DNA of 64,000 nt from Bdellovibrionales bacterium (GTDB lineage: Bacteria > Bdellovibrionota > Bdellovibrionia > Bdellovibrionales > JAUICD01): contig OZ253553.1 of assembly GCA_965262715.1 (NCBI GenBank), positions 352,001 to 416,000 on the forward strand, in the 5' to 3' direction. Position 1 is the stretch's first letter. Each line of letters starts with the position of its first letter. A program made the position numbers and the translations under genes. Positions 4,654 to 61,796 of the stretch are shown piece by piece. Under the pieces are notes generated by a model. The model saw only the letters and a program-made list of their open reading frames with translations. It searched no databases and had not been told where the DNA came from.

Positions 4654-6001
4654 GGCCTTGTTGCACAAAGATTTAAATAGTTTTTATTTTATTTATTTTT
4701 TAAGTAAGATTGTCATTTAATATTTTTTTATCAAGCTGAAAGAGAAGAAGGCACAATCATCTGATTAAGGATTTTACATTTAATAAACACTTCATTTGCT
4801 TGACGATGAAATTCTCTAGAAGATAATTTATCACCTAATAAAGTTTTAAATCTATACATAGCTGTTTCTGATATAGACCTCCTGTGATATTTATGTTTTT
4901 TTTTCCACTTCTTTCTACCCATCTTCTTGATTTCTCTAATATAAGTATCTCTAAGAAGCGGCGATCCCCGACAATTTCCATGCCTCTTAATCACAGCATT
5001 CTTTCTAGGTGGAGCAACCAATTTTATACTTCTATCACTTGTAAACTGATAACAATTCTTACAGTCATAAGCCCCATCAACTGAAACTTGGCCTATCTCA
5101 TCTTCATATCCTGTCAATAACTCTTCAAAAACCTCATTATCCTTTACAGAATTATCACTTAAAACAGATGCCTTAATCTGGGAATTTGACTCATCTACCG
5201 CTAAATGTAGCTTCTTCCAGGTCCTTCTCTTAGAATACCCATGCTGACGGACTTTCCACTCTCCCTCCCCATAAACTTTAAGACCTGTGGAATCAATGAC
5301 AATATGAGGATTCTTGTGAGAAGATAGCTTTCTTTCTAGTTTTACTGATAACTTCTGTAATCTTCTGCAAAGAGTTGTATAATTAGGTATTTCTATATCA
5401 AGACACATAAGTTCAACTAGGGATTTAGCAAAACCTTCTGTAGATCGCAATTTTAAACCAAATATGAATCTTAATATATTAAGAGTTTCAATAGCTTTAT
5501 CAGAGTAAACTTGTTGACCCCCTTGCTTTGAAGAACATTTTGCATACCAAGATTTGACGATATCTGCTGAAAACCAAAAAGTGATTTGACCTCTATTGAC
5601 TAGAGACTTATTATAAAGACTCCAGTTTATTTTTTTATTTTTACCCATCTCTAGCTCCTTCTGATTTAGTGATTGTGAAAGTTGGGGATGGGTAAATTTT
5701 ATAATCACTAAAAACAAAAAATCAAAGTAATAGATATCAAACTCAGAAAAAATAGAGCTTAGGCAAAAAACTTCATATATGGTGCATAATAAACATCTGT
5801 AGGAGAATTATGGCAGGCTTCTGAAATAGGACTAGGCCAGTGCCTTAGGAGAAAAATATCTATAAAGCATTCGATACTATAATAAAATCTTAAAATAATA
5901 GCAATAAAAGGTACAGAGGCCCTCTAAGGCCTATGGAAGATGCCTGACTTAATTCTCTAACTTGTATACACATATTCCATAAATCTTTGTGCAACAAGAC
6001 C
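4654..6001 (-). mobile_element. IS5 family (IS903 group) insertion sequence, complete, 1348 bp
   Basis: 22-bp TIRs ggccttgttgcacaaagattta / taaatctttgtgcaacaagacc (1 mismatch); 9-bp TSD gtctaatgc at 4645-4653 and 6002-6010. Confidence 0.95.
4731..5648 (-). CDS. IS5 family (IS903 group) DDE transposase
   Basis: NWSLYNKSLVNRGQITFW, IDSTGLKVYGEGEW, DGAYD, YHRRSISETAMYRFK; RBS aaggag upstream of ATG 5648. Confidence 0.95.
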   Translation of the reverse strand: MGKNKKINWSLYNKSLVNRGQITFWFSADIVKSWYAKCSSKQGGQQVYSDKAIETLNILRFIFGLKLRSTEGFAKSLVELMCLDIEIPNYTTLCRRLQKLSVKLERKLSSHKNPHIVIDSTGLKVYGEGEWKVRQHGYSKRRTWKKLHLAVDESNSQIKASVLSDNSVKDNEVFEELLTGYEDEIGQVSVDGAYDCKNCYQFTSDRSIKLVAPPRKNAVIKRHGNCRGSPLLRDTYIREIKKMGRKKWKKKHKYHRRSISETAMYRFKTLLGDKLSSREFHRQANEVFIKCKILNQMIVPSSLSA

Positions 6002-8181: not shown

Positions 8182-9508
8182 GGTGGATTCAAGTCGTAAG
8201 TGCAACACTCCTTGCCTAGTTGTTTAAAGGTGGTTAGAGGAATACTCTAATCAATACCTTTACATAACGAGAGGAGTATTCCATGAGTAAATACACTCAT
8301 CTAACCCAAAGTGACAGATACCAGATTTTAGCACTTTTGCAAAGTGGAAAATCAATAAGTTCAATTGCTACGCAGCTAGGTCGAGATAAAAGCACGATAT
8401 ATAGGGAGCTGAGTCGTAACAAAGGTTTGCGAGGTTATCGTGCTCAACAAGCCCATGAAAAAGCAGTCGATCGTCTTCAAGACTCTCATAGACATATAAA
8501 GATAACACAAAAAGTCATTAATAAGCTTGAGAGGTTTCTTTGTGAACGTTGGAGTCCGGAACAAATATCCGGTTTTCTTAAAACAAAAGGTTTTTCTATA
8601 AGTCATGAGAGTATTTATCAACATATTCTGCGAGATAAGAAATCAGGAGGTGATCTCTACAAATTTTTAAGATGTCAGAAGAAACGCAAGAAGCGATATG
8701 GTACAAGTAGGTTTGATAAAAGGGGTCAGATACAGAATAGAGTGAGTATTGATAAAAGACCTAAGATAGTAGATAAGAGGATTCGCATAGGAGACTGGGA
8801 AGGTGATTTAATGATAGGTAGACATCATAAAGGAGCTTTAGTCACACTGGTAGATAGATGTTCTAAGAAGACGAGGATTGTCAAAATAGAATCTAAGAGT
8901 TCTGAGGCAGTATTTCATGCTATTTCTAAAACTCTTAAAAGAGAGGTTGTTCATACAATGACTTTGGATAATGGTAAAGAGTTTTCGTGTCATGAGAAGA
9001 TCAGTGAATATACCGGATGTAAAGTTTATTTTGCACATCCTTACAGTTCATATCAGAGGGGTTTAAATGAGAACACGAATGGTTTAATCCGTCAGTATTT
9101 TCCAAAGAAGACAGACTTTAGAGAAATCACCTCTAAGGATGTAAAAAAGGTTGAGTTTCTTTTAAATCACCGCCCTCGAAAGAGTTTAGGTTTTCTAACT
9201 CCCAATGAGTTTCATAGACAGAAGATGATTTGTTGAAATCATTATCAATTCAAAATTACTTATCCTATATAACAGCTTTTTGTAAGTAAAAATTGATGTT
9301 TATAGTAAAGGCAAGTTTTTCCGCAGAGCTTTAGCTCGAGGACTACTTGCCTTTACTATAAACATCAAAGTATATCTCTTCAAATAAAATAATTTACTGT
9401 AATCTTTCACTATAATTAAAACTTTGTTGGAATATTAATCTTAAAATGATATAACTTTTAAAAATATCTATAACCGCAAAAGTGTTGCACTTGCGATTTG
9501 AAGTTACA
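8182..9508 (+). mobile_element. IS30 family insertion sequence, complete (divergent variant), 1327 bp
   Basis: IRL ggtggattcaagtcgtaagtgcaac, IRR gttgcacttgcgatttgaagttaca; 3-bp TSD AAA. Confidence 0.93.
8283..9236 (+). CDS. IS30 family transposase
   Basis: N-terminal HTH (GRDKSTIYRELSRN), WSPEQI, GDWEGD, DNGKEF, RGLNENTNGLIRQYFPK. Confidence 0.97.
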   Translation: MSKYTHLTQSDRYQILALLQSGKSISSIATQLGRDKSTIYRELSRNKGLRGYRAQQAHEKAVDRLQDSHRHIKITQKVINKLERFLCERWSPEQISGFLKTKGFSISHESIYQHILRDKKSGGDLYKFLRCQKKRKKRYGTSRFDKRGQIQNRVSIDKRPKIVDKRIRIGDWEGDLMIGRHHKGALVTLVDRCSKKTRIVKIESKSSEAVFHAISKTLKREVVHTMTLDNGKEFSCHEKISEYTGCKVYFAHPYSSYQRGLNENTNGLIRQYFPKKTDFREITSKDVKKVEFLLNHRPRKSLGFLTPNEFHRQKMIC

Positions 9509-16523: not shown

Positions 16524-17395
16524 CTGTTTCCCTAAAAATAGACCTGCCTCTGGCAGTTTTTGGGCAGTCAGCCTGAAGACTTACGTCTTCAAGAAAATGC
16601 TAACTGCCTCAAAAATTTGTCTATTTTTAGGAGGGAGACTACCCTCGTTCTTTAACACGATGTTAAGGAAAACTTTTTATTCACTAAAAATAAACCAGCG
16701 TCTGTTTCACTAAAAATGAACCAGCCTCTCGAGGCGAGCCTCTGGCAGTTTTTGGGCAGTTAGCCTGAAGACTTACGTCTTCAAGAAAATGCTAACTGCC
16801 TCAAAAATTTGTCTATTTTTAGGAGGGAGACTACCCTCGTTCTTTAACACGATGTTAAGGAAATCGCTGACTACTTTATCCCTAGTTCCTCTTACTATCT
16901 CTTCCTCTCCTTACAAATCACACCAAATCTTTAGCAAGATAAGAGTGGATATTTATGGCAAAAAGACAAGTTCTTCCGCAGATGGGATCGCTAAAAAGAG
17001 ATCCCATCGAGGACTACTTGGCTTTGCCATAAATATCCAGTCATTGCCCCAAAGATTTTTTCCTTGTTTTTCTAAAAAACAATCCATCTCCTAACTCTGG
17101 CGACTTTCTGGCATTGCCCTCAAACTGGCTCACGCCGTTTGGCAAATAGGGCAATGCCTAGAAAGCATGAGGCATTGTAGTAAACCAGATATCTCTCGTT
17201 ATTTAACATAATGTTAAGGAAATCATTCTCTTGCTATCTTCTCTTCTTACAAAGCCTAGAGAGGATAATACATTTTAGTAGGGAGATACTTTTTATCTAT
17301 TAACATAATGTTAAGGAAACTGTCTTACTTACTTCTTTCATTAAAATGCATCTGACCTCTAGAGGCTCGCCTCGAGAGGCTAGTTTATTTTTAAG
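16524..17395 (+). repeat. Family A modular palindrome cluster (two ~126-bp modules at 192-bp spacing plus fragments) with nested family C hairpin
   Basis: gcctctggcagtttttgggcag...ttaacacgatgttaaggaaa at 16546 and 16738; further modules 17093-17395. Confidence 0.85.
16946..17039 (+). repeat. Family C hairpin, free-standing copy
   Basis: tggatatttatggcaaa...ttccgca-gatgggatc..gatcccatc-gaggactacttg...tttgccataaatatcca, homologous to the IS30 3' hairpin. Confidence 0.8.
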
Positions 17396-23372: not shown

Positions 23373-23474
23373 TTAGAGATTGTTGTTTGGATTAGAATAT
23401 CTTATTTTAGATTGTCAAAGTGTCTAACTTTCTGATTTCTAAGATTTTAAAAATTGTGTTTAGAGGTGACAGGA

Positions 23475-25673
23475 ATGAATTACAATAATGTACAAGATCA
23501 AAATATATCTCAGCCAAATATCACAAAATATGGAAGGGATTTAGTTGAGATTGCAAAAAGTGGTCACCTTGACCCTGTGATTGGAAGGAACTTTGAAATA
23601 AGAAGAGTGATTCGTATTTTATCTCGTAAGACAAAAAACAATCCTGTTCTTATAGGGGAAGCCGGAGTTGGCAAGACAGCTATTGCAGAGGGACTTGCTC
23701 AAAGAATAGTTAAAGGAGATGTTCCAGATGCCCTTAAAAACAAAACCATTTTTGCATTAGATATAGCCTCTTTAGTGGCAGGCGCTAAATTTTTAGGTGA
23801 GTTTGAAGAGCGTTTAAAGTCAGTGTTATCTGAGGTTAAAAAATCTGACGGGCGCATTTTACTTTTTATTGATGAACTTCACACCATTGTAGGGGCAGGT
23901 AAAACAGAAGGGGCTATGGATGCAGGGCAAATTTTAAAGCCACTGCTTGCAAGGGGTGAGCTTCACTGTATTGGAGCAACCACTTTAGATGAATACAGGC
24001 AATATATAGAGAAAGACATGGCTTTAGAAAGACGTTTTCAACCTGTTTTTGTAAATCCCCCTTCTGTGGATGATACTATTTCTATTTTAAGAGGTTTAAG
24101 GGAACGTTTCGAGGTTTATCATGGGGTGCGTATACATGATGCTGCTTTAGTGTCAGCAGCTGTTTTATCAGACAGATATATCAATGATCGTTTCTTGCCA
24201 GATAAGGCTATTGATCTTGTGGATGAGGCTTGTGCTACAATTCGTACAGAATTAGATTCTATGCCTGCAGAATTAGATCAAGTCACTCGCAGGGTTTTGC
24301 AATTAGAGATTGAAGAGACTGCATTAAAAAAGGAGACCGATGCTTCAAGTCAAGAGAGGTTAAAATTAGTTAAACAGGAGCTTGAAAAATTAAAAAAATC
24401 TTCAAATGAGATGAAAAAACAATGGGAAAAAGAGAAAGCTTCTGTTCAGAGTGTCAGAAAGCTGAGAAAAGAGATTGAATCTGTAAGACGTGATATTGAA
24501 AGATATGAAAGGCAGTACAATCTTGAAAAAGTTGCAGAATTAAAACTTGGAAAATTACCAGAGTTAGAAAAAACATTAAAAAAAGAAGAAGCGCAAATAG
24601 AAAAAAATGCAGAATCAAATAAGCTTTTGTCTGAAGCTGTCACTGAAAAAGAAATACACGATATTATTTCTAATTGGACAGGCATTCCACTTTCTAAGCT
24701 TTTAAAAGGAGAAAAGGAAAAACTATTGCATCTTACTGATGAACTTCACAAGCGTGTGATTGGGCAGAATGAAGCTGTTAAGTATGTCTGTGATAGTATA
24801 ATGCGAGCAAGAGCGGGTATTAAAGATCCTCAGAGGCCTATTGGCTCTTTTTTGTTTTTGGGACCAACAGGAGTTGGCAAAACAGAACTAGCCAAGGCTT
24901 TAGCAGAAGCTCTTTTTGATACAGAAAATAATATCATTAGAATAGATATGAGTGAATATATGGAAAAGCATGCTGTCAGTCGTTTGATAGGAGCCCCTCC
25001 TGGATATGTTGGGTTTGAAGATGGTGGTTACCTTACAGAAGCTGTAAGGCGTAGGCCCTACTCTGTGATTCTATTAGATGAAGTAGAAAAGGCACATCCT
25101 GAAGTCTCTCATATTTTACTGCAAATTTTAGATGATGGTCGTTTGACAGACTCAAAAGGACGTACAGTTGATTTTAAAAATACAGTTTTGATTATGACAT
25201 CTAATGCAGGTGCTTCACATATTCTGGAATCTTTAGAGGATAAAAAATTATCAAAAAATAAAAATTCTCCTTTTGTTACTCTTGAAGTAAAAAAGCTTGT
25301 ATTGAAAGAATTGCATCTTTTATTTCGTCCGGAGTTTTTAAATAGGGTTGATGAAATTGTGATGTTCTCTCCTCTTGATTCATCACAGCTTCTGCAAATA
25401 GTGGATATACAAGTTAAAAGGATCTGTGACCGCCTTAAATCGCGTAAGATTTCTATTACACTGACAGATAAGGCTAAAAAGTTCATTGTGGAGCAATCGT
25501 ATGATCCTATGTATGGGGCAAGGCCTGTTAAGAGGTTCTTACAAAGAAATCTTGAGACTTATTTAGCTCAAGCTGTCTTAGAAGGTCAGATTGTAGATGA
25601 GCAAGATGTTACTATTGATGTCAATTCAAAAGGTCAAATGTATCTAAAAATGGTCTCAAAAATACTAGATTGA
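23475..25673 (+). CDS. clpB: ClpB-type AAA+ disaggregase lacking the N-terminal domain
   Basis: Two Walker A motifs ([16 protein letters not shown]), M-domain coiled coil, [11 protein letters not shown]; begins about 15 aa before KYGRDL. Confidence 0.9.
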
Positions 25674-26913: not shown

Positions 26914-28248
26914 GGTGGATTCAAGTCGTAAGTGCAACTCCTTGCATAGTTGTTTAAAGCGGGTTAGAGGAATACTCTAGTCCATACGCTTTAAACACAG
27001 AAAGGAGTATTCCATGAGCTACACTCATCTAACCCAACATGAGAGATACCAGATTTTAGCTTTTTGCAAAGTGGAAAATCAATAAGTTCAATTGCTACTC
27101 AGGTAGGTCGAGATAAAAGCACCATATATAGGGAATTGAATCGCAACAAAGGTTTGCGAGGTTATCGTCCTCAACAAGCCCATGAAAAAGCAGTCGATCG
27201 TCTTCAAAACTCTCATAGACATATAAAGATAACACAAAAAGTCATTAATAAGCTTGAGAGGTTTCTTCGTGATCGTTTGAGTCCGGAACAGATATCCGGT
27301 TTTCTTAAACGAAAAGGTTTGTCTATAAGTCATGAGAGTATTTATCAGCATATTCTTGGAGATAAGCAATCAGGAGGAGATCTCTACAAATTTTTAAGAT
27401 GTCAGAGGCAACGGAAGAAGCGATATGGTACAAGTAGATTTGATAAAAGGGGTCAGATAAAGAATAGAGTGAGCATTGATAAAAGGCCTAAGATAGTAGA
27501 TAAGAAGAGTCGGATAGGAGACTGGGAAGGTGATCTAATGATAGGTAGACATCATAAAGGAGCTTTAGTCACGCTGGTAGATAGATGTTCTAAGAAGACG
27601 AGGATTGTCAAAATAGAATCTAAGAGATATGAGGCAGTTTTTCATGCTATTTCTAAAGCTCTTAAAGGAGAGGTTGTTCATACAATGACTTTGGATAATG
27701 GTAAAGAGTTTTCGTGTCATGAGAAGATCAGTGAATATACTGGATGTAAAGTTTATTTTGCACATCCTTACAGTTCATATCAGAGAGGTTTAAATGAGAA
27801 CACGAATGGTTTAATCCGTCAGTATTTTCCAAAGAAGACAGATTTTAGAGAAATCGCCTCTAAGGATGTAAAAAAGGTTGAGTTTTTTTTAAACCATCGC
27901 CCTCGAAAGAGTTTAGGTTTTCTAACTCCTAATGAGTTTCATAGACAAAAGATGGTTTGCTGAAGTTATTCATAGTTTATCCATTTAATTTTACTTATAT
28001 ATAATAACTTCTGAAAATGCTTATTTGACAGCTTGATGTTTATGGCAAAGGATCGTTCTTCCGCAGAGCTTTAGCTCGAAGACTACGAGACTTTGCCATA
28101 AACATCAAAATACATTCATTCAAATTAAATAATTTACAATAATCTTTCATGATAATTAAAACTTTGTTGAAATATTAATCTTAAAATGATACAACTTTTA
28201 AAAATATCTATAAACATAAAAGAGTTGCACTTGTGATTTGAAGTTACG
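26914..28248 (+). mobile_element. IS30 full-length copy with frameshifted transposase
   Basis: Both IRs present; ATG 27014 is out of frame with 27064-27963 because of a T5 instead of T6 run at 27061. Confidence 0.9.
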
Positions 28249-34411: not shown

Positions 34412-35699
34412 CTGTATCCCTAAAAATAGTCTCGCCTCTATATCACTAAAAATGCCTCTCGCCTCTGGCGACTTTCTGGCATTGCCCCCAAACTGGCTCA
34501 CGCCGTTTGGCAAATAGGGCAATACCTAGAAAGCCTGAGGCATTTTTACTAGAAGGATATCCTCGTTTTTTAACACGATGTTAGGGAAACCGTTGTTATT
34601 TATCAGTTAGTCTAAAGACCCCAAGTCTTCAAGAAAATGCTGACTGCCTAGAAAACCTGTTCATTTTTAGTAGGAAGAATCTTCTCATTTCTTTACACCA
34701 TGTTAAGGAAAATCTTCATTTATTTATGAGTTCTAAAGCAATCTGCACAGCATTAAGTGCAGCCCCTTCCTGGCATTGCCCCCAAACTGGCTCACGCCGT
34801 TTGGCAAATAGGGCAATACCTAGAAAGCCTGAGGCATTTTTACTAGAAGGATATCCTCGTTTTTTAACACGATGTTAGGGAAACCGTTGTTATTTATCAG
34901 TTAGTCTGAAGACCCCAAGTCTTCAAGAAAATGCTGACTGCCTAGAAAACCTGTTCATTTTTAGTAGGAAGAATCTTCTCATTTCTTTACACCATGTTAA
35001 GGAAAATCTTCATTTATTTATGAGTTCTAAAGCAATCTGCACAGCATTAAGTGCAGCCCCTTCCTGGCATTGCCCCCAAACTGGCTCACGCCGTTTGGCA
35101 AATAGGGCAATACCTAGAAAGCCTGAGGCATTTTTACTAGAAGGATATCCTCGTTTTTTAACACGATGTTAGGGAAACCGTTGTTATTTATCAGTTAGTC
35201 TGAAGACCCCAAGTCTTCAAGAAAATGCTGACTGCCTAGAAAACCTGACTATTTTTAGGAGGGAGACTCTCCTCATTTTTTTACACCATGTTAAGGGAAC
35301 TGTATCCCTCAAAATAAGCCCTATGGCTTACTTTCAGGAGTTGTCATCCTCTTTATTTTGAAATAACTCTTTGCAGGTTATTTCAAAATAATAATGATTA
35401 CTGAAAGTAAGTAAAGCTTATTTTGAGGAAAAAGACAGTACATTACCTATCTGTCTTTCCCTCTGGAGATTTTTATATGAAAACAGCATTATTTAAGTAA
35501 GGAGACTTTCCTCGCTCTTTAACAAAAGGAATTGTTTCTATTCTCTGGCAGTCTGGGAATCGGTTCCCGGCAACAGCTTGCCGGATTAACGGGTTGCCTG
35601 TTTCCCGGAAAAAAAAGAAAGTGCTAACTACCTCAAAAATCTGTTCATTTTTAGTAAGCAGATTCCCTTCGTCTCTTTACATCATGTTAAGGAAAATCT
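34412..35699 (+). repeat. Family A tandem array, 294-bp period, containing displaced asd 3'-end copies
   Basis: ctggcattgcccccaaac at 34476, 34770, 35064; asd-like 51 nt at 34716 and 35010. Confidence 0.92.
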
Positions 35700-38848: not shown

Positions 38849-39367
38849 TAGAAGCCATCTCAAAAATAAATATTTGCATTTTACAACATCTCTATTCCGG
38901 GATCTGGCAGTCGGGTAATCAGGTATCAGGCATTATCATTCGCGTTCAACCGTTGTATTTGAAAGCACTTTATGCTGAATGCCAAATAATACAAGAATTG
39001 TAAAAGCCAATGATAAGAATGAGAAGAGGCTTGCCTCGAGAGGCTTGCCTTGAGAGGCTCACCTTGAGAGGCCAGTTCATCTTTAGGGAAACAGTTCCCT
39101 AACATGATGTAAAGAACAAGCAGTATCTCCATCCTAAAAATAAACGGATTTTTGAGGCAGTGAACAGTTTGTAAGGGCGTTAGCCGTCATGTTTATTGCC
39201 CAAAAACAACCAGAGGCTTGCCTCGAGAGGTTGGTTTATTTTTAGGGAAATGAAATAAATGCAAAAATTCAAATTACAGGTGCCGGATATTTTGATTCTG
39301 GGTACTGTATGCCAGAGTGCCGGTTTGCCAGATCCCGGAAAAAAAGGATGCTTAAGTAGTTATGAAC
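38849..39367. repeat. Composite family B / inverted family A repeat
   Basis: tagaagccatctcaaaaataa end, octamers, reverse-oriented A modules 39025-39250, ~130-bp tail shared with 57078-57207. Confidence 0.75.
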
Positions 39368-47682: not shown

Positions 47683-49020
47683 CGTAACTTCAAATCGCAA
47701 GTGCAACTCTTTTGTGTTTGTAGATATTTTTAAAAGTTGTATCACTTTAGGATTAATATTCCAACAAAGTTTTAATTATCATGAAAGATTATTGTAAATT
47801 ATTTAATTTGAATGAATGTATTTTGATGTTTATGGCAAAGTCTCGTAGTCCTCGAGCTAAAGCTCTGCGGAAGAACGATCCTTTGCCATAAACATCAAGC
47901 TGTCAAATAAGCATCTTCAGAAGTTATTATATATAAGTAAAATTAAATGGATAAACTATGAATAACTTCAGCAAACCATCTTTTGTCTATGAAACTCATT
48001 AGGAGTTAGAAAACCTAAACTCTTTCGAGGGCGATGGTTTAAAAGAGACTCAACCTTTTTTACATCCTTAGAGGCGATTTCTCTAAAATCTGTCTTCTTT
48101 GGAAAATACTGACGGATTAAACCATTCGTGTTCTCATTTAAACCTCTCTGATATGAACTGTAAGGATGTGCAAAATAAACTTTACATCCAGTATATTCAC
48201 TGATCTTCTCATGACACGAAAACTCTTTACCATTATCCAAAGTCATTGTATGAACAACCTCTCCTTTAAGAGCTTTAGAAATAGCATGAAAAACTGCCTC
48301 ATATCTCTTAGATTCTATTTTGACAATCCTCGTCTTCTTAGAACATCTATCTACCAGCGTGACTAAAGCTCCTTTATGATGTCTACCTATCATTAGATCA
48401 CCTTCCCAGTCTCCTATCCGACTCTTCTTATCTACTATCTTAGGCCTTTTATCAATGCTCACTCTATTCTTTATCTGACCCCTTTTATCAAATCTACTTG
48501 TACCATATCGCTTCTTCCGTTGCCTCTGACATCTTAAAAATTTGTAGAGATCTCCTCCTGATTGCTTATCTCCAAGAATATGCTGATAAATACTCTCATG
48601 ACTTATAGACAAACCTTTTCGTTTAAGAAAACCGGATATCTGTTCCGGACTCAAACGATCACGAAGAAACCTCTCAAGCTTATTAATGACTTTTTGTGTT
48701 ATCTTTATATGTCTATGAGAGTTTTGAAGACGATCGACTGCTTTTTCATGGGCTTGTTGAGGACGATAACCTCGCAAACCTTTGTTGCGATTCAATTCCC
48801 TATATATGGTGCTTTTATCTCGACCTACCTGAGTAGCAATTGAACTTATTGATTTTCCACTTTGCAAAAAAGCTAAAATCTGGTATCTCTCATGTTGGGT
48901 TAGATGAGTGTAATTGCTCATGGAATACTCCTTTCATTATTTAAAGAGATTGATTAGAGTATTCCTCTAACCCGCTTTAAATAACTATGCAAGGAGTTGC
49001 ACTTGCAACTTGAATCCACC
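47683..49020 (-). mobile_element. IS30 family insertion sequence, complete, 1338 bp
   Basis: Both IRs; 3-bp TSD GTA (47680-47682, 49021-49023). Confidence 0.95.
47968..48921 (-). CDS. IS30 family transposase
   Basis: 317 aa, same motifs as 8283-9236. Confidence 0.97.
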   Translation of the reverse strand: MSNYTHLTQHERYQILAFLQSGKSISSIATQVGRDKSTIYRELNRNKGLRGYRPQQAHEKAVDRLQNSHRHIKITQKVINKLERFLRDRLSPEQISGFLKRKGLSISHESIYQHILGDKQSGGDLYKFLRCQRQRKKRYGTSRFDKRGQIKNRVSIDKRPKIVDKKSRIGDWEGDLMIGRHHKGALVTLVDRCSKKTRIVKIESKRYEAVFHAISKALKGEVVHTMTLDNGKEFSCHEKISEYTGCKVYFAHPYSSYQRGLNENTNGLIRQYFPKKTDFREIASKDVKKVESLLNHRPRKSLGFLTPNEFHRQKMVC

Positions 49021-52746: not shown

Positions 52747-53691
52747 TTATATTTTTGTAGATAAGCTTTTTGTTTCTGTTATTTTTTGATACATTAAGCC
52801 TCCAACAAGACCTGAAGCAAAACCTCCAAGATGTGCCGTATGGGCAATATAAACAAATCCTGGTAAGGTGCTAAGATATCCTGAGATATCTGTCAGTAAC
52901 CACACTCCTATAAATAACCATGTTGGAAGAAAAATCCATCTCCACCATCCTTGTATGGGTAAAATGCCTAGTAATAACCTTACAGGCTGTCGAAAGCACA
53001 GCACAGCAAATATTCCAATAAGAGCATTGATGGAAGCGCTTGCTCCGATCAAGGGAGAAAAAGACAAACTTGATATTTTAGCAAATGTTATAGCTCCTAC
53101 ACATCCTCCTAATAAGTAATTGAATAAGAAAAAAAGATGACCAATGAGTGGCTCTAAAAATCCTCCAAAAATTAGTAAAAACCAGCAATTAAATAACAAA
53201 TGCAAGATGTTTCCATGAATGAATTGATAGCTTAAAAAATGGTACCATTCTTGATTTTTAACAGAAAGTCCAAAATAGAAGCTAGGAGCTTTTTCTTTTT
53301 GCTTAAGATATATATCTAATTTTTGATTCCAATAATCATTTTCTACTTCATCTTTAGATGAAAATAAATCTCTTGCTTTCAAAAATGACCAATCTTGAAA
53401 AGCTAATTTTCCTAGTAGCGATGTCTGCTCTAATTGACCTGACAATGAGGCTGAAGCCATATCAAGTAAAAAGTTATCATACTCTTCTTCATTGTTGATT
53501 AAATGCTGTGTGTATGCTCTCCCTTGAGCTCTTATAAACGATTTATCGCTTAATAAAGATTTTTGAAAACTTTGTACCTTCGTCTCTTCTATTTTAAAAC
53601 ATGTAAAACAAGTTACATACAATAATACAAGTATCCATGTTATAGGGGCTTTCTTGAAAGAAGGTGGTCCAGATAAAAAAGGTAGGATCAT
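52747..53691 (-). CDS. Rhomboid family intramembrane serine protease
   Basis: FIHGNILHLLFN, IGASA, AHTAHLGGF. Confidence 0.9.
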   Translation of the reverse strand: MILPFLSGPPSFKKAPITWILVLLYVTCFTCFKIEETKVQSFQKSLLSDKSFIRAQGRAYTQHLINNEEEYDNFLLDMASASLSGQLEQTSLLGKLAFQDWSFLKARDLFSSKDEVENDYWNQKLDIYLKQKEKAPSFYFGLSVKNQEWYHFLSYQFIHGNILHLLFNCWFLLIFGGFLEPLIGHLFFLFNYLLGGCVGAITFAKISSLSFSPLIGASASINALIGIFAVLCFRQPVRLLLGILPIQGWWRWIFLPTWLFIGVWLLTDISGYLSTLPGFVYIAHTAHLGGFASGLVGGLMYQKITETKSLSTKI

Positions 53692-55670
53692 TGCTGTCCA
53701 AACTTAGAGATTAAGGTTTCTTGAATATCTTGGAATTCTTCTTTTGAAGAGACATTAGCGATACTTCTTGTTGGAGATTTTGAATAAACTGGATAACTTT
53801 GATAAGAAAACTTTTGTTGATCATTGTTTTGATCATTGACTGTTCTTAGAATATCCCATGCCTCTTTTTCTTGACCTATTTTATAAGAAGCAATGATGAG
53901 GTTTTGTGTTAGTTTTTGATTATAGGGATCCATTTCAAAGAGCTGATTTCCAATACGGGTTGCTAATATGAGATTGTTCATTTCAAAGGATTTATTGAAA
54001 AGCATAAGTCCCAATGTTCTAGCGTTCCAAGTTGAAACATCAGCTTTAAACCAGTCTTCTGCTAAATCATTGATATCTAAAGGACTGTCTGTAATAAATG
54101 CTAAAAGTTCTTTAGCTTCTTCAAAATAAGGTGAATTGTGTTGAATATAGTTTCCTTCAGAAGCATTTTTTTGTTCTTGAATTAAGCCTTTAAGTATAGC
54201 TTTTGACTCTTTAACTTTTCTTTCTTTTATCAGTCTCATTGCGCGTACTAATTGAAGAGCAGGCATTTCTATCATTTCATCTTCTAGCGCTATATAGTCT
54301 AATTTATCTCTTTGACTACAAATATTAATTTTAATATAGGCCAGAGAGTAAAGGTTATTTTCTAAAAGTAAAGGATCATTTTTCACTGTGCTAGCAAAAT
54401 CTTGGCAATTAGATATAACTTCATTTGTACAGGTTTCCTTAAGTTGTTGCAAACAGTACCAGCTTGATAACTTTAATATATCTTGTGTAGATAAAACTTG
54501 AATAGCAGATTGAAAGGCCACATGTGCTTCTTTTTTTCTTCTTAAGCCCCAAAGTGCTGCTACTCTGTGAGACATAAGATACTCTTTCAGTGGTTTAATA
54601 TGCCAAAGCTGTTGAATAATTTCTTCTTCTGCTTCAAACTCTTTAACTCTTTCAAAGTGCTTTATAGCCCATACTTTCATAAAGCTTTTTGTTTTTTGAT
54701 AATCTAAAGTGCGAAATTTCTGACTTGCTTCTTCCCATTTTTTTTGAGACCATAAATTGACAATTTGACCTAATTGACAGGCTTGACCATCTGAAGATAC
54801 TTCACAGGCTTTTTTTAAGTACTTATCAGATAGTAAAGGCTGATCATCAGAAGTAATAAAAGCATTAGCTAAGTAAGCCATATCTAGGTTTTCGTTGTTA
54901 TAAAAGGCATGCTGAGTTTCTAAATCTAGACATTGATGGTCTATCAAGTAGGCACTATGAAGTGTGAGTGCTATTTCTAGGCGTGATGTTGGATCTTCAT
55001 CATAATTGTAAGGCCATGTACTTTCTAGATCAGTGACCTTATCACAGTAAACTTTATTAGATTCTAAAAGTTTTGATATGCTTGCTTTTTCTTCACTCTT
55101 TTTTATGATTTGATAAGGATAGAAAGTTAACAGAAAAATAATGGAGCATGTAAAGGTGAGAACAATAAATTGCCCAAAAATACTTACTAGTAAAGGTGGA
55201 GCTGGAGTAAATCGGCCTCGTGTAGAGATCACAATAGATTCAGCAATGCGATCGTAAATAGGTCTTCTTTGGTGGTGAAAAAAAATGGCGAGATGAGGTA
55301 TATAGAGTAAAAAAGTACATAGGAGCCAGAAAAACTCTCTTATAATAACATTAAAAGTACTTAGAGGTTGGCCAGACCAAACATTTACCACTTGCAGTCC
55401 GGTAAGTAATTTTCCAGGGGTGCCTCCTTTTATTATTGTGAAAATGGTTCTATATAAAAATGCTAAAACAATTGAAAGTAAAATAGCTAAAAAGATTGTG
55501 ATGAGTAATGAATGGCCCTGTTGAGTAAACTTGAATATTAAAATATATTTTCTTATGGGGGATAAAAATAGACCAAAGATAGTCGCTAAAAAAATAAAGT
55601 CTATTATAAAAGCAATATAACGATCTTTGATACATGCCGGCTTATTGGTTAATAAATTTGGATTGTCCAT
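53688..55670 (-). CDS. RDD family membrane protein with large helical C-terminal domain
   Basis: RYIAFIID, GGTPGKLLTGLQV, RRPIYDRIAES. Confidence 0.8.
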   Translation of the reverse strand: MDNPNLLTNKPACIKDRYIAFIIDFIFLATIFGLFLSPIRKYILIFKFTQQGHSLLITIFLAILLSIVLAFLYRTIFTIIKGGTPGKLLTGLQVVNVWSGQPLSTFNVIIREFFWLLCTFLLYIPHLAIFFHHQRRPIYDRIAESIVISTRGRFTPAPPLLVSIFGQFIVLTFTCSIIFLLTFYPYQIIKKSEEKASISKLLESNKVYCDKVTDLESTWPYNYDEDPTSRLEIALTLHSAYLIDHQCLDLETQHAFYNNENLDMAYLANAFITSDDQPLLSDKYLKKACEVSSDGQACQLGQIVNLWSQKKWEEASQKFRTLDYQKTKSFMKVWAIKHFERVKEFEAEEEIIQQLWHIKPLKEYLMSHRVAALWGLRRKKEAHVAFQSAIQVLSTQDILKLSSWYCLQQLKETCTNEVISNCQDFASTVKNDPLLLENNLYSLAYIKINICSQRDKLDYIALEDEMIEMPALQLVRAMRLIKERKVKESKAILKGLIQEQKNASEGNYIQHNSPYFEEAKELLAFITDSPLDINDLAEDWFKADVSTWNARTLGLMLFNKSFEMNNLILATRIGNQLFEMDPYNQKLTQNLIIASYKIGQEKEAWDILRTVNDQNNDQQKFSYQSYPVYSKSPTRSIANVSSKEEFQDIQETLISKFGQQ

Positions 55671-55701: not shown

Positions 55702-57090
55702 CTGTATCCCTAAAAATAGTCTCGCCTCTGGCGACTTTCTGGCATTGCCCTCAGACGTGCTTACGCCGTCTGGCAAATAGGGCAATGCCTAGAAAGCCTG
55801 ACTATTTTTAGGGGGGAGACTCTCTTCGTTTCTTTACATCATGTTAAGGAAATCGTACTGTATATTCCCTAAAATGAACTGGCCTCTGTTCCACTAAAAT
55901 GCATCTCGCCTCTGGCTACTTTCTGGTGATAACCCTGATGGCTCCATCAGAAAATGGTTATCACCTAGAAAGCTTGATGCATTTTAGTAGAGAGGATATC
56001 TTCACTCTCTTACAACATGTTAGGGAAATTATTATTGTTTGTTAGTTAGCCTGAAGACTTGCGTCTTCAGAAAATGGCTTACTGCCTAGAAAGCCTGACT
56101 ATTTTTAGGGGGGAGACTCTCTTCGTTTCTTTACATCATGTTAAGGAAATCGTACTGTATATTCCCTAAAATGAACTGGCCTCTGTTCCACTAAAATGCA
56201 TCTCGCCTCTGGCTACTTTCTGGTGATAACCCTGATGGCTCCATCAGAAAATGGTTATCACCTAGAAAGCTTGATGCATTTTAGTAGAGAGGATATCTTC
56301 ACTCTCTTACAACATGTTAGGGAAATTATTATTGTTTGTTAGTTAGCCTGAAGACTTGCGTCTTCAGAAAATGGCTTACTGCCTAGAAAGCCTGACTATT
56401 TTTAAGGGGGAGACTCTCTTCGTTTCTTTACATCATGTTAAGGAAATCGTACTGTATATTCCCTAAAATGAACTGGCCTCTGTTCCACTAAAATGCATCT
56501 CGCCTCTGTTCCACTAAAATGCATCTCGCCTCTGGCTACTTTCTGGTGATAACCCTGATGGCTCCATCAGAAAATGGTTATCACCTAGAAAGCTTGATGC
56601 ATTTTAGTAGAGAGGATATCTTCACTCTCTTACAACATGTTAGGGAAATTATTATTGTTTGTTAGTTAGCCTGAAGACTTGCGTCTTCAGCAAATGGCTT
56701 ACTGCCTAGAAAGCCTGATGCATTTTAGTAGAAAGGATCTCTTCACTCTCTTACAACATGTTAGGGAAATTATTGTTGTTTGTTAGTTAGCCTGAAGGCT
56801 TACGCTATGGAATATATTCCCTTCAAGAAAATGCTGATTGCCTCAAAAACCTGTTCATTTTTAGGAGGGAGACTCTCTTCGTTTCTTTACATCATGTTAA
56901 GGAAATCGTACTGTATATTCCCTAAAAATAAACCTGCCTCTGTTTCACTAAAATGCATCTGACCTTTCGAGGCGAGCCTCTGGTCACTTTCTGGCAGTAA
57001 GCCTGAAGACTCACGCTACGGGATATATCCCCTTCAAGAAAATGCTGACTATCCAAAAACTGCTAGAAGCAGGTTCATTTTTAGGGAAAT
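55702..57090 (+). repeat. Family A tandem array, 297-bp period (3 units plus variant modules)
   Basis: tgcctagaaagcctga at 55786, 56083, 56380, 56703 (third unit has a 26-bp internal duplication); array ends in an inverted arm 57055-57090. Confidence 0.93.
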
Positions 57091-57241
57091 GAAATAGATG
57101 CAAAAATTCAAGTTACAGATGCCCAGATATTTTGATTCCGGGTACAGTATGCCAGAGTGCCGGGTTGCCAGATTCCGGAAAAAAAGGATGCTTAAGTAGT
57201 TATGAACTATAATAAATTCATAGTTTTTGAGATAGTTCGGG

Positions 57242-60458: not shown

Positions 60459-61796
60459 CGTAACTTCAAATCGCAAGTGCAACTCTTTTGTGTTTATAGA
60501 TATTTTTAAAAGTTGTATCATTTTAAGATTAATATTTCAACAAAGTTTTAATTATCATGAAAGATTATAGTAAATTATTTAATTTGAATGAATGTATTTT
60601 GATGTTTATGGCAAAGTCTCGTAGTCCTCGAGCTAAAGCTCTGCGGAAGAACGATCCTTTGCCATAAACATCAAGCTGTCAAATAAGCATCTTCAGAAGT
60701 TATTATATATAAGTAAAATTAAATGGATAAACTATGAATAACTTCAGCAAACCATCTTTTGTCTATGAAACTCATTAGGGGTTAGAAAGCCTAAACTTTT
60801 TCGAGGGCGATGGTTTAAAAGAGACTCAACCTTTTTTACATCCTTAGAGGTGACTTCTCTAAAATCTGTCTTCTTTGGAAAATACTGACGGATTAAACCA
60901 TTCGTGTTCTCATTTAAACCTCTCTCATATGAACTGTAAGGATGTGCAAAATAAACTTTACATCCAGTATATTCACTGATCTTCTCATGACACGAAAACT
61001 CTTTACCATTATCCAAAGTCATTGTATGAACAACCTCTCCTTTAAGAGCTTTAGAAATAGCATGAAAAACTGCCTCAGATCTCTTAGATGCTATTTTGAC
61101 AATCCTCGTCTTCTTAGAACATCTATCTACCAGCGTGACTAAAGCTCCTTTATGATGTCTACCTATCATTAGATCACCTTCCCAGTCTCCTATCCGAAGC
61201 TTCTTATCTACTATCTTAGGCTTTTTATCAATGCTCACTCTATTCTTTATCTGACCCCTTTTATCAAATCTACTTGTACCATATCGCTTCTTCCGTTGCC
61301 TCTGACATCTTAAAAATTTGTAGAGATCTCCTCCTGATTGCTTATCTCCAAGAATATGCTGATAAATACTCTCATGACTTATAGACAAACCTTTTGGTTT
61401 AAGAAAACCGGATATCTGTTCCGGACTCAAACGATCACGAAGAAACCTCTCAAGCTTATTAATGACTTTTTGTGTTATCTTTATATGTCTATGAGAGTTT
61501 TGAAGACGATCGACTGCTTTTTCATGGGCTTGTTGAGGACGATAACCTCGCAAGCCTTTGTTACGATTCAATTCCCTATATATGGTGCTTTTATCTCGAC
61601 CTACCTGAGTAGCAATTGAACTTATTGATTTTCCACTTTGCAAAAAAGCTAAAATCTGGTATCTCTCATGTTGGGTTAGATGAGTGTAATTGCTCATGGA
61701 ATACTCCTTTCATTATTTAAAGAGATTGATTAGAGTATTCCTCTAACCCGCTTTAAATAACTATGCAAGGAGTTGCACTTACAACTTGAATCCACC
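60459..61796 (-). mobile_element. IS30 family insertion sequence, complete, 1338 bp
   Basis: Both IRs; 3-bp TSD ATA. Confidence 0.95.
60744..61697 (-). CDS. IS30 family transposase
   Basis: 317 aa, near-identical to 47968-48921. Confidence 0.97.
   Translation of the reverse strand: MSNYTHLTQHERYQILAFLQSGKSISSIATQVGRDKSTIYRELNRNKGLRGYRPQQAHEKAVDRLQNSHRHIKITQKVINKLERFLRDRLSPEQISGFLKPKGLSISHESIYQHILGDKQSGGDLYKFLRCQRQRKKRYGTSRFDKRGQIKNRVSIDKKPKIVDKKLRIGDWEGDLMIGRHHKGALVTLVDRCSKKTRIVKIASKRSEAVFHAISKALKGEVVHTMTLDNGKEFSCHEKISEYTGCKVYFAHPYSSYERGLNENTNGLIRQYFPKKTDFREVTSKDVKKVESLLNHRPRKSLGFLTPNEFHRQKMVC

Follow-up and report, generated by a model that had tools for sequence, protein, structure and literature searches.

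The window analysed here, a 64,000-nucleotide stretch of a Bdellovibrionales genome (G000), carries copies of a 147-bp element that is a real, genus-restricted, selfish non-coding repeat with an unusual insertion footprint. The element is dispersed through the genome, folds into a branched Watson–Crick rod and enters new sites through replacement junctions without target duplication. It has inserted repeatedly into its own copies, at the loop of a side hairpin (P3) and at the loop of the terminal hairpin, has been amplified in tandem and exchanges its rod between copies. It works like a REPIN or like bcr1, yet it fails the defining tests of both. The initial annotation of this DNA had treated tandem arrays of hairpin modules as the system. 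The primary unit is instead the dispersed 147-bp element, and the arrays are nested self-insertions followed by tandem amplification; the broader idea of a structured element that spreads, amplifies and is under selection for its fold was supported.

A profile built from 64 solo copies gave 465 hits in G000, 309 of them near full length. They form 230 clusters and occupy 62 kb (2.1%) of the 2.94-Mb genome; 130 clusters hold a single copy, and the family is mainly dispersed. G001, a Bdellovibrionales MAG of a congener with a median protein identity of 68% to G000, has 1205 hits in the 2.4 Mb scanned, 680 of them near full length, making up 5.8% of that DNA (the gene-family searches described below cover the whole G001 genome). 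Among 151 genomes of the order, hits of the covariance model were confined to G000, G001 and G004, and among 151 genomes of the phylum, a sample without G001, they were confined to G000. G004 was rejected as a third host because the contigs that bear the element were misbinned and come from a close relative of G000. Two of these contigs, C1 and C11, are 92–94% identical to G000 and duplicate genes found on C14/C15, the duplicated genes in the bin being recG and ribosomal protein genes, and a third, C4, aligns to G000 at 85–91%. Since the G004 hits sit on these three contigs, the element is known from one genus only. In viral contigs, nine pattern hits were obtained, none of which matched the element model. 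G000 and G001 are heavily rearranged relative to each other, with 244 syntenic gaps among 829 single-copy orthologues. None of these gaps carries the element in both species, and 9 + 9 carry it privately, which indicates that it is mobile. Rfam recognised only a tRNA in the window, and nine element loci gave no gathering-score match (E up to 1). This agrees with the earlier impression that the family was not a recognised one. A search of the openly accessible literature gave no published description of the element.

Bases 8–108 of the element form the rod, which has a three-way junction and consists of an outer stem P2, the side hairpin P3, a stem P4 in which one base is always bulged out, an A-rich internal loop and an apical stem P5. 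The segment gcctctggc, previously read as a bulge, is P3 itself, a 5-bp side hairpin with an invariant TCT loop, and all five of its pairs covary. Folds of single copies have z scores of −7.1 to −9.5 on either strand (8 folds). The covariation expected from the initial annotation was borne out: among 58 distinct copies, 94.5% of cells pair, 33 of 47 pairs vary on both sides, and double-sided changes occupy 454 cells compared with 149 ± 11 in shuffles, a control that leaves relatedness among copies in place, and at most 49 with slid partners. The 3' part (109–148) shows almost no compensation and comprises a purine/pyrimidine linker and a near-invariant 12-base motif. Covariation was not supported for the terminal hairpin, which has three double changes over its six pairs; an invariant motif describes it better. 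Rare stem variants were mostly uncompensated (41 uncompensated and 2 compensated; 40 and 2 in a second set). Conversion within hairpins alone therefore does not explain the stems, arm-to-arm conversion was rejected as the source of compensation, and selection on the fold is favoured over arm-to-arm repair. We infer that selection on donors is a simpler reading of the pairing than routine arm-to-arm repair. The helices are 88–98% Watson–Crick with G–T pairs at no more than 3.7% (562 and 209 copies). A–C is somewhat commoner than G–T on the plus strand of the rod, a weak hint that the minus strand or DNA is the folded form.

Comparisons of nested module pairs mostly yield all four combinations. 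In the 92–94% identical relative, two orthologous loci have the same junctions and tails as in G000 but different inner modules, and 370 distant-copy pairs with identical rods in G001 differ at 6.2 of 28 linker bases, compared with 8.1 for random pairs. Same junctions with other rods, and identical rods with near-random linkers, indicate that rods are exchanged in place. DGR-like hypermutation was rejected for the 3' linker, because rare alleles there are not raised (3–6 per 1000 nt); the variation is due to reshuffling of alleles already present.

On one side of the flagged stretch is the start of an RDD-family gene (53688-55670, minus strand), and on the other the end of an unknown gene (57242). 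Its parts, and the other copies in the window, are as follows.

55703..55852, plus strand: full element A1 (150 bp), sharply bounded at its 5' end; its rod (outer stem P2, side hairpin P3, P4, A-rich internal loop, apical P5) is followed by the purine/pyrimidine linker and the invariant 3' motif.
55853..55866, plus strand: 14-nt tail after the 3' motif of A1.
55867..55886, plus strand: 5' stub of a host copy that breaks off in the P3 loop.
55887..56028, plus strand: full element A2, 142 bp, within the P3 loop of the host copy.
56029..56149, plus strand: 13-nt tail and the 3' remainder of the host copy (model positions ~41-148).
56150..56446, plus strand: second 297-bp unit (tail, stub, A2, tail, remainder), with one difference from the first.
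56447..56769, plus strand: third unit, with a second 26-bp stub (56481-56506), A2 (56507-56648), a tail and a recombinant remainder.
56770..56905, plus strand: tail and last remainder, with an expanded apical loop; it holds the return arm that matches the stubs.
56906..57089, no single strand: tail, stub and a head-to-head chimera with overlapping plus and minus model hits.
57090..57190, minus strand: remnant of a four-helix-bundle cassette without a gene, compared by eye with intact cassettes.
34414..35299, plus strand: second array, with a stub, a full copy (34440-34589), a tail and a remainder, then 294-bp units.
16525..17319, plus strand: cluster of three copies plus a fragment, beginning 69 bp upstream of a divergent tRNA-Arg and accompanied by the sibling rod B described below.
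35616..35695, plus strand: 3' fragment, after hexamer repeats.
39095..39250, minus strand: solo copy whose side hairpin has 14-bp expansions.

The outer arm of the stub at 55867..55886 pairs with the return arm at 56853 and not with the next copy. In the chimera, the 5' halves of a plus and a minus copy are connected through the inner stem, and the cassette remnant consists of the first arm of a leader palindrome and a hexamer-repeat arm. Tandem expansions of 14 bp, with up to ~19 copies, grow out of the side-hairpin or apical loop elsewhere as well (window 39025-39072; G000:C1:1892762-1893034 and 2566565).

All eight outer-stem arms named in the initial annotation are present (55710/55800, 55894/55976, 16532/16619 and 34447/34537), and the terminal motif, put at about 20 copies, occurs 19 times on the plus strand and twice on the minus strand (21 in the window). 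TRF confirmed the array periods of 294 (34472-35296) and 297 (55786-56508), and in each array neighbouring units differ at a single base (of 294 and 297, respectively). Both near-equal periods were thus measured correctly, but they are not a constant of the family, as perfect arrays span 158–431 bp. In short-read runs X1 and X3, possibly from the source sample of this genome, unitigs of the array unit have a depth of ~26–39x compared with 10–12x on unique flanks, and run X5, from a different study, holds a 174-base piece over an internal array junction with zero differences. Because the array unit has about three times the depth of its flanks and the junction-spanning piece is unchanged in another study, the array is judged to be real and not an assembly artefact.

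The 297-bp unit consists of a tail, a stub, an inserted copy, a tail and a remainder, repeated in tandem. The 294/297-bp period matches one copy inside the side-hairpin loop of another, with later tandem amplification. The 294-bp unit is made up of a truncated copy, a remainder and a 51-bp spacer; as the spacer replaces the stub, its likeness to the 297-bp period is partly chance. In other perfect arrays the repeated unit is one copy together with its own downstream flank, with periods of 158–431. Self-insertion is a general feature of the family. Full copies often have a stub of 20–26 bases upstream that ends in the P3 loop and are followed by a short tail and a copy without its first 35–45 bases; stub and remainder are both present at 9 of 235 copies (Fisher p = 0.0008). 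Distinct 5' junctions that follow a P3-loop stub number 24 of 221 in G000 and 63 of 524 in G001, and G001 contains 41 distinct composites of stub, copy, tail and remainder, most of them 280–300 bp long. In the 37 informative G001 composites, the remainder arm resembles the stub more closely in 25 and the inner copy in 8, with 4 ties. The mean mismatch between stub and remainder is 2.0 compared with 3.2 after shuffling, and none of 2000 shuffles was as good. In G000 the remainder arm is closer to the stub in five of six composites, with a borderline shuffle p of 0.056. A second hot spot, the terminal-hairpin loop, receives insertions in antisense at 51 of 524 G001 junctions; none was seen among the G000 junctions.

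Filled and empty paralogous sites were found for 9 of 129 solo copies tested in G000 and 22 of 151 in G001; some of the empty sites are repeats themselves, and the beginning of another repeat family is present in some of the tails. In 29 of these 31 pairs, 0–91 target bases were lost on the 3' side and the 5' joint lay within ~9 bases of the element start; two pairs had local duplications of 18–21 bases. Tails of 0–41 non-target nt follow the 3' motif. They are pyrimidine-rich and common to unrelated loci, and one of them holds the start of the next copy. The 5' boundary is sharp, with C or T at −1 in 93% of 147 junctions. Such junctions make it very improbable that the element is a DDE-transposon MITE whose ends have decayed. 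The ends do form an imperfect 12–13 bp inverted repeat starting TGTTTC, the length is MITE-like and the genome has many IS families, but there is no target duplication, the 3' boundary varies, the end positions do not covary with each other and none of six IS families inspected has the ends of the element. The MITE reading is therefore largely refuted.

Targets include MITE copies, Rpn genes, CRISPR repeat ends and tRNA ends, and in both species a site at codons 66–68 of four-helix-bundle genes. Copies lie within 200 bp of 13 of 38 tRNAs, and five begin 0–4 bases past the tRNA 3' end. At three related CRISPR arrays (G000:C1:476742, 482119 and 490459), the element replaces a spacer at one end, and at G000:C1:2607210 it abuts a CRISPR array with a different repeat. 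Four possible preferences were rejected: the tail as a guide complementary to the 5' flank showed no excess over shuffled pairs (219 copies), unique targets showed no upstream excess of hairpins (p = 0.55 and 0.37), synteny breakpoints were not enriched in six size-matched tests, and no replichore bias was found (96 of 199 and 119 of 244), GC skew being weak here. Both genomes have a weak, irregular GC skew, with 55% of genes on the apparent leading strand.

The distribution around genes might suggest an element that is useful to its host, as a terminator, a nucleoid or protein-binding site or a small RNA, and that is spread by ordinary recombination only, its pairing being maintained by that function. 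The element is almost wholly intergenic (1 of 198 single-orientation clusters lies inside a long ORF), its plus strand is terminator-like, and its 3' end avoids gene starts: the two genomes have 8 and 12 such cases, compared with 39 and 88 in which the 5' end faces a gene start (p = 0.002 and 0.0004). This orientation bias is also expected if 3'-side deletions remove promoters. Moreover, no position is common to both species, and the element breaks Rpn, four-helix-bundle, CRISPR and MITE sequences as well as its own copies, so we consider host usefulness improbable.

The initial annotation had suggested a RAYT/TnpA or reverse transcriptase as partner, and this expectation was not supported: neither host has a RAYT, and G001 has neither a Y1 transposase nor a reverse transcriptase. 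The RAYT model NF047646 gave no match in G000 or G001 and three weak matches in the element-free G002. PF01797 had no match in G001, and in G000 matched only IS200, which has its own ends. Reverse transcriptases (PF00078) were absent from G001 and gave three matches in G000, which include a group II intron ORF and a 590-aa retron-like enzyme (C1:1928475-1929872 and 2650522-2652294, respectively); the latter adjoins a tRNA-Asp duplication that carries one element copy. Neither host has an IS110 recombinase (PF02371), the best integron integrase match (TIGR02249) in both was 44.5 bits against a cut-off of 265, and no AEP primase-polymerase was found in five genomes. The Y2 transposase search (PF04986) gave 0 of 5 genomes, and its positive control also gave no match. 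Tyrosine recombinases were rejected as candidates (two per host, none near copies in G000, and present in the element-free G002), as was loss of mismatch repair, since MutS is present in all five genomes. Only 18 ORFs have an element copy on both sides, in mixed orientation, and no gene of unknown function in G000 is flanked by the element in the manner of a RAYT. Since the searches gave no transposase of a usual kind and no reverse transcriptase common to the two hosts, an undescribed copy-in route is likely.

Two enzyme-based accounts can be weighed against these searches. In the first, a divergent or recently lost HUH enzyme of the REPIN or IS91 kind would nick at the 5' end, transfer the strand and stop leakily past the 3' motif. 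One end is precise and the other variable, loops and bulges are invariant, and C|T ranks first among the G000 junctions (95 of 186), which resembles the cut of TnpA-REP at CT described in PMC8266576; REPINs too form tandem repeats with their flanks and insert into each other, according to PMC3116915. Against this, C|T makes up only 66 of 296 junctions in G001, where T|T leads with 156, and the GTAG/CGTC tag expected before a short palindrome is not invariant (positions 107–110 are G 88, T 68, A 98 and G 49 percent). Together with the failure to find a RAYT, a Y1 other than IS200 or a RAYT-like flanked gene, this makes an HUH enzyme unlikely. In the second, a SINE-like RNA, transcribed from the plus strand, fixed at its 5' end and ragged and U-rich at its 3' end, would insert by target-primed reverse transcription with a lost reverse transcriptase or a host polymerase. 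Target deletion combined with a variable tail and carried-along flank is a retroposon-like footprint, and the element shows target deletions, pyrimidine-rich variable tails and carried-along flank. A terminator-like hairpin with a T-run is found on the plus strand in 11 of 13 hits (13 compared with 1.1 in shuffles), and G000 does have the group II intron and retron-like reverse transcriptases. We nevertheless regard this route as rather unlikely: G001, with ~2.6 times more hits, has no PF00078 match, no internal promoter-like site was found in the element above chance, the many 5'-truncated copies are explained as split hosts, and the near absence of G–U pairs in the rod makes us lean to DNA over RNA.

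The element may quite possibly spread instead as folded single-stranded DNA that is copied in by polymerase template switching at a break, the reading we tentatively prefer. Copying would start at the fixed 5' boundary Y|TGTTTCAC with 0–3 bases of microhomology, pass the invariant 3' motif into 5–25 bases of donor flank, and then rejoin the target further on. Only well-paired rods would act as donors, so that compensatory alleles would be kept, and gene conversion between copies would later shuffle the nested modules. The breaks might come from the multicopy Rpn nucleases, from the machinery that moves hexamer-flanked four-helix-bundle cassettes, or from both; RpnA-made ends can prime template switching, as described in PMC5350276. 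Against template switching, the searches gave no enzyme, and no intermediate was seen. Single-stranded DNA transposons such as IS200 and IS91 usually show a leading/lagging strand bias, and none is present here. SbcD was found in G000 only (C1:1722305-1723099); G001 gave no match, and palindromes there are more numerous and cleaner.

The four-helix-bundle genes were raised as a lead by the initial annotation. The physical link is real, but the genes also occur without the element and are not a sufficient cause. The two hosts have 19 (G000) and 14 (G001) gene matches; all 14 G001 loci have a copy in the 3.2 kb examined, compared with none of six loci in G004 proper, which has 19 matches and no element. 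For ORFs in general, about 30% have a copy nearby. In G001, 17 of 19 intact Rpn ORFs have a copy within 450 bp, compared with 107 of 361 ORFs of like size, and 136 hexamer runs, which are arms of four-helix-bundle cassettes, end in the 3' motif of the element. In G000 such runs were counted at 0, and the link to Rpn is weak, with 4 of 12 loci of one Rpn subfamily near the element. The misbinned G004 contigs were rejected as support for either link. Rpn genes (PF12784) occur in 8 of 151 genomes of the order, and the element-free G003 has 16 matches. Only the two hosts among five genomes of the family have both gene families in many copies; as these are two species of one genus, and so not independent, this co-occurrence carries no statistical weight. 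The element often interrupts Rpn and four-helix-bundle genes, which may be only tolerant targets. The four-helix-bundle (PF05635) cassettes resemble the element in being multicopy, without a transposase and provided with a strictly paired leader palindrome; in G001 they share its 3' terminal motif and are in constant physical contact with it. They differ in their wide occurrence, in 58 of 151 genomes of the order, including G004 proper. At the G001 loci (L014-L027) the leader palindrome covers the start codon and has a compensated change that tracks a Gln/Lys difference at the protein start. No paper on TIGR02436 was found in a search of the openly accessible literature. It is conceivable, although doubtful, that these observations reflect a class of transposase-free mobile DNA, in which template switching would paste a donor, folded and single-stranded, into nicked hairpin loops through a pathway common to the four-helix-bundle (Avd-like) cassettes and Rpn nucleases, with the 3' motif as the common signal. 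If so, the element would be a gene-less parasite of this pathway and its best assay substrate.

Among known repeats, REPINs and BIMEs with their RAYT resemble the element, as far as described in PMC3116915 and PMC8266576: they too are present in a single lineage as hundreds of intergenic palindromic copies, form tandem repeats together with flank, insert into existing copies or next to them and conserve bulges and loops, and their CT-like junction recalls the one that leads in G000. The element differs in being one asymmetric 147-bp branched rod and not two inverted short REPs, in having hosts without a RAYT and in replacing target bases and adding a tail. The bcr1 repeat of the Bacillus cereus group is likewise ~150 bp and branched with compensatory changes, occupies positions that are not conserved between strains and has no established mobiliser, according to PMC3184786. 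The same source describes 5-bp direct repeats and transcription of bcr1, whereas the element makes no target duplication and targets itself; the comparison is by description, the host here being a Bdellovibrionales relative and not a member of that group. The pithovirus repeats M1 and M2 are ~140-bp palindromes in clusters without a clear transposase, and their two alternating families in expanding and contracting arrays recall the element and the sibling rod B described below; their terminal inverted repeats are reported to be long and accompanied by a putative TA duplication (PMC10664404), unlike the element, which is asymmetric with bulged, modular stems. Integron attC sites, as far as the sources consulted describe them, also combine sequence-variable stems with fixed unpaired bases and are read as folded single-stranded DNA. 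The element has no integron integrase or cassette arrays and is dispersed at random in both orientations, and its spacers are tails, flank or other repeats and not gene cassettes. It thus fails the defining tests for REP/REPIN, MITE and attC. Many small bacterial repeats lack a known mobiliser, and this one gives unusually clean footprints, with ~1000 near-full copies in two closed genomes and dozens of independent self-insertions at defined loops. Its replacement-type junction is unlike MITE duplications, and its rods recombine freely yet stay paired. Owing to the clean footprints, the copy-in mechanism and the role of the four-helix-bundle and Rpn proteins are directly testable. If the fold and not the sequence is recognised, the element would be a second structure-specific single-stranded DNA recombination site besides attC.

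Other repeats and features were noted in the same genomes. The sibling rod B, at ~16900-17064 of the window, has variable, perfectly compensated stems and a conserved internal loop (CTTCCGCA / GAGGACT); 69 cores were found in G000 and 45 in 2.4 Mb of G001, alone or alternating with the element, and the loci that hold it gave no Rfam match. A separate MITE family of G000 with terminal inverted repeats of ~17–19 bp (e.g. C1:11848-12179 and 1784621-1784951) often carries the element at several offsets, and no transposase with those ends was seen. The window contains four IS30 transposase genes and one of IS5 (8283-9236, 27064-27963, 47968-48921, 60744-61697 and 4731-5717), with ends that do not match the element. 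A ClpB ORF (23454-25673) matches its model from position 148 only, with the N-terminal domain missing, and an Hsp20 gene lies just upstream of it.
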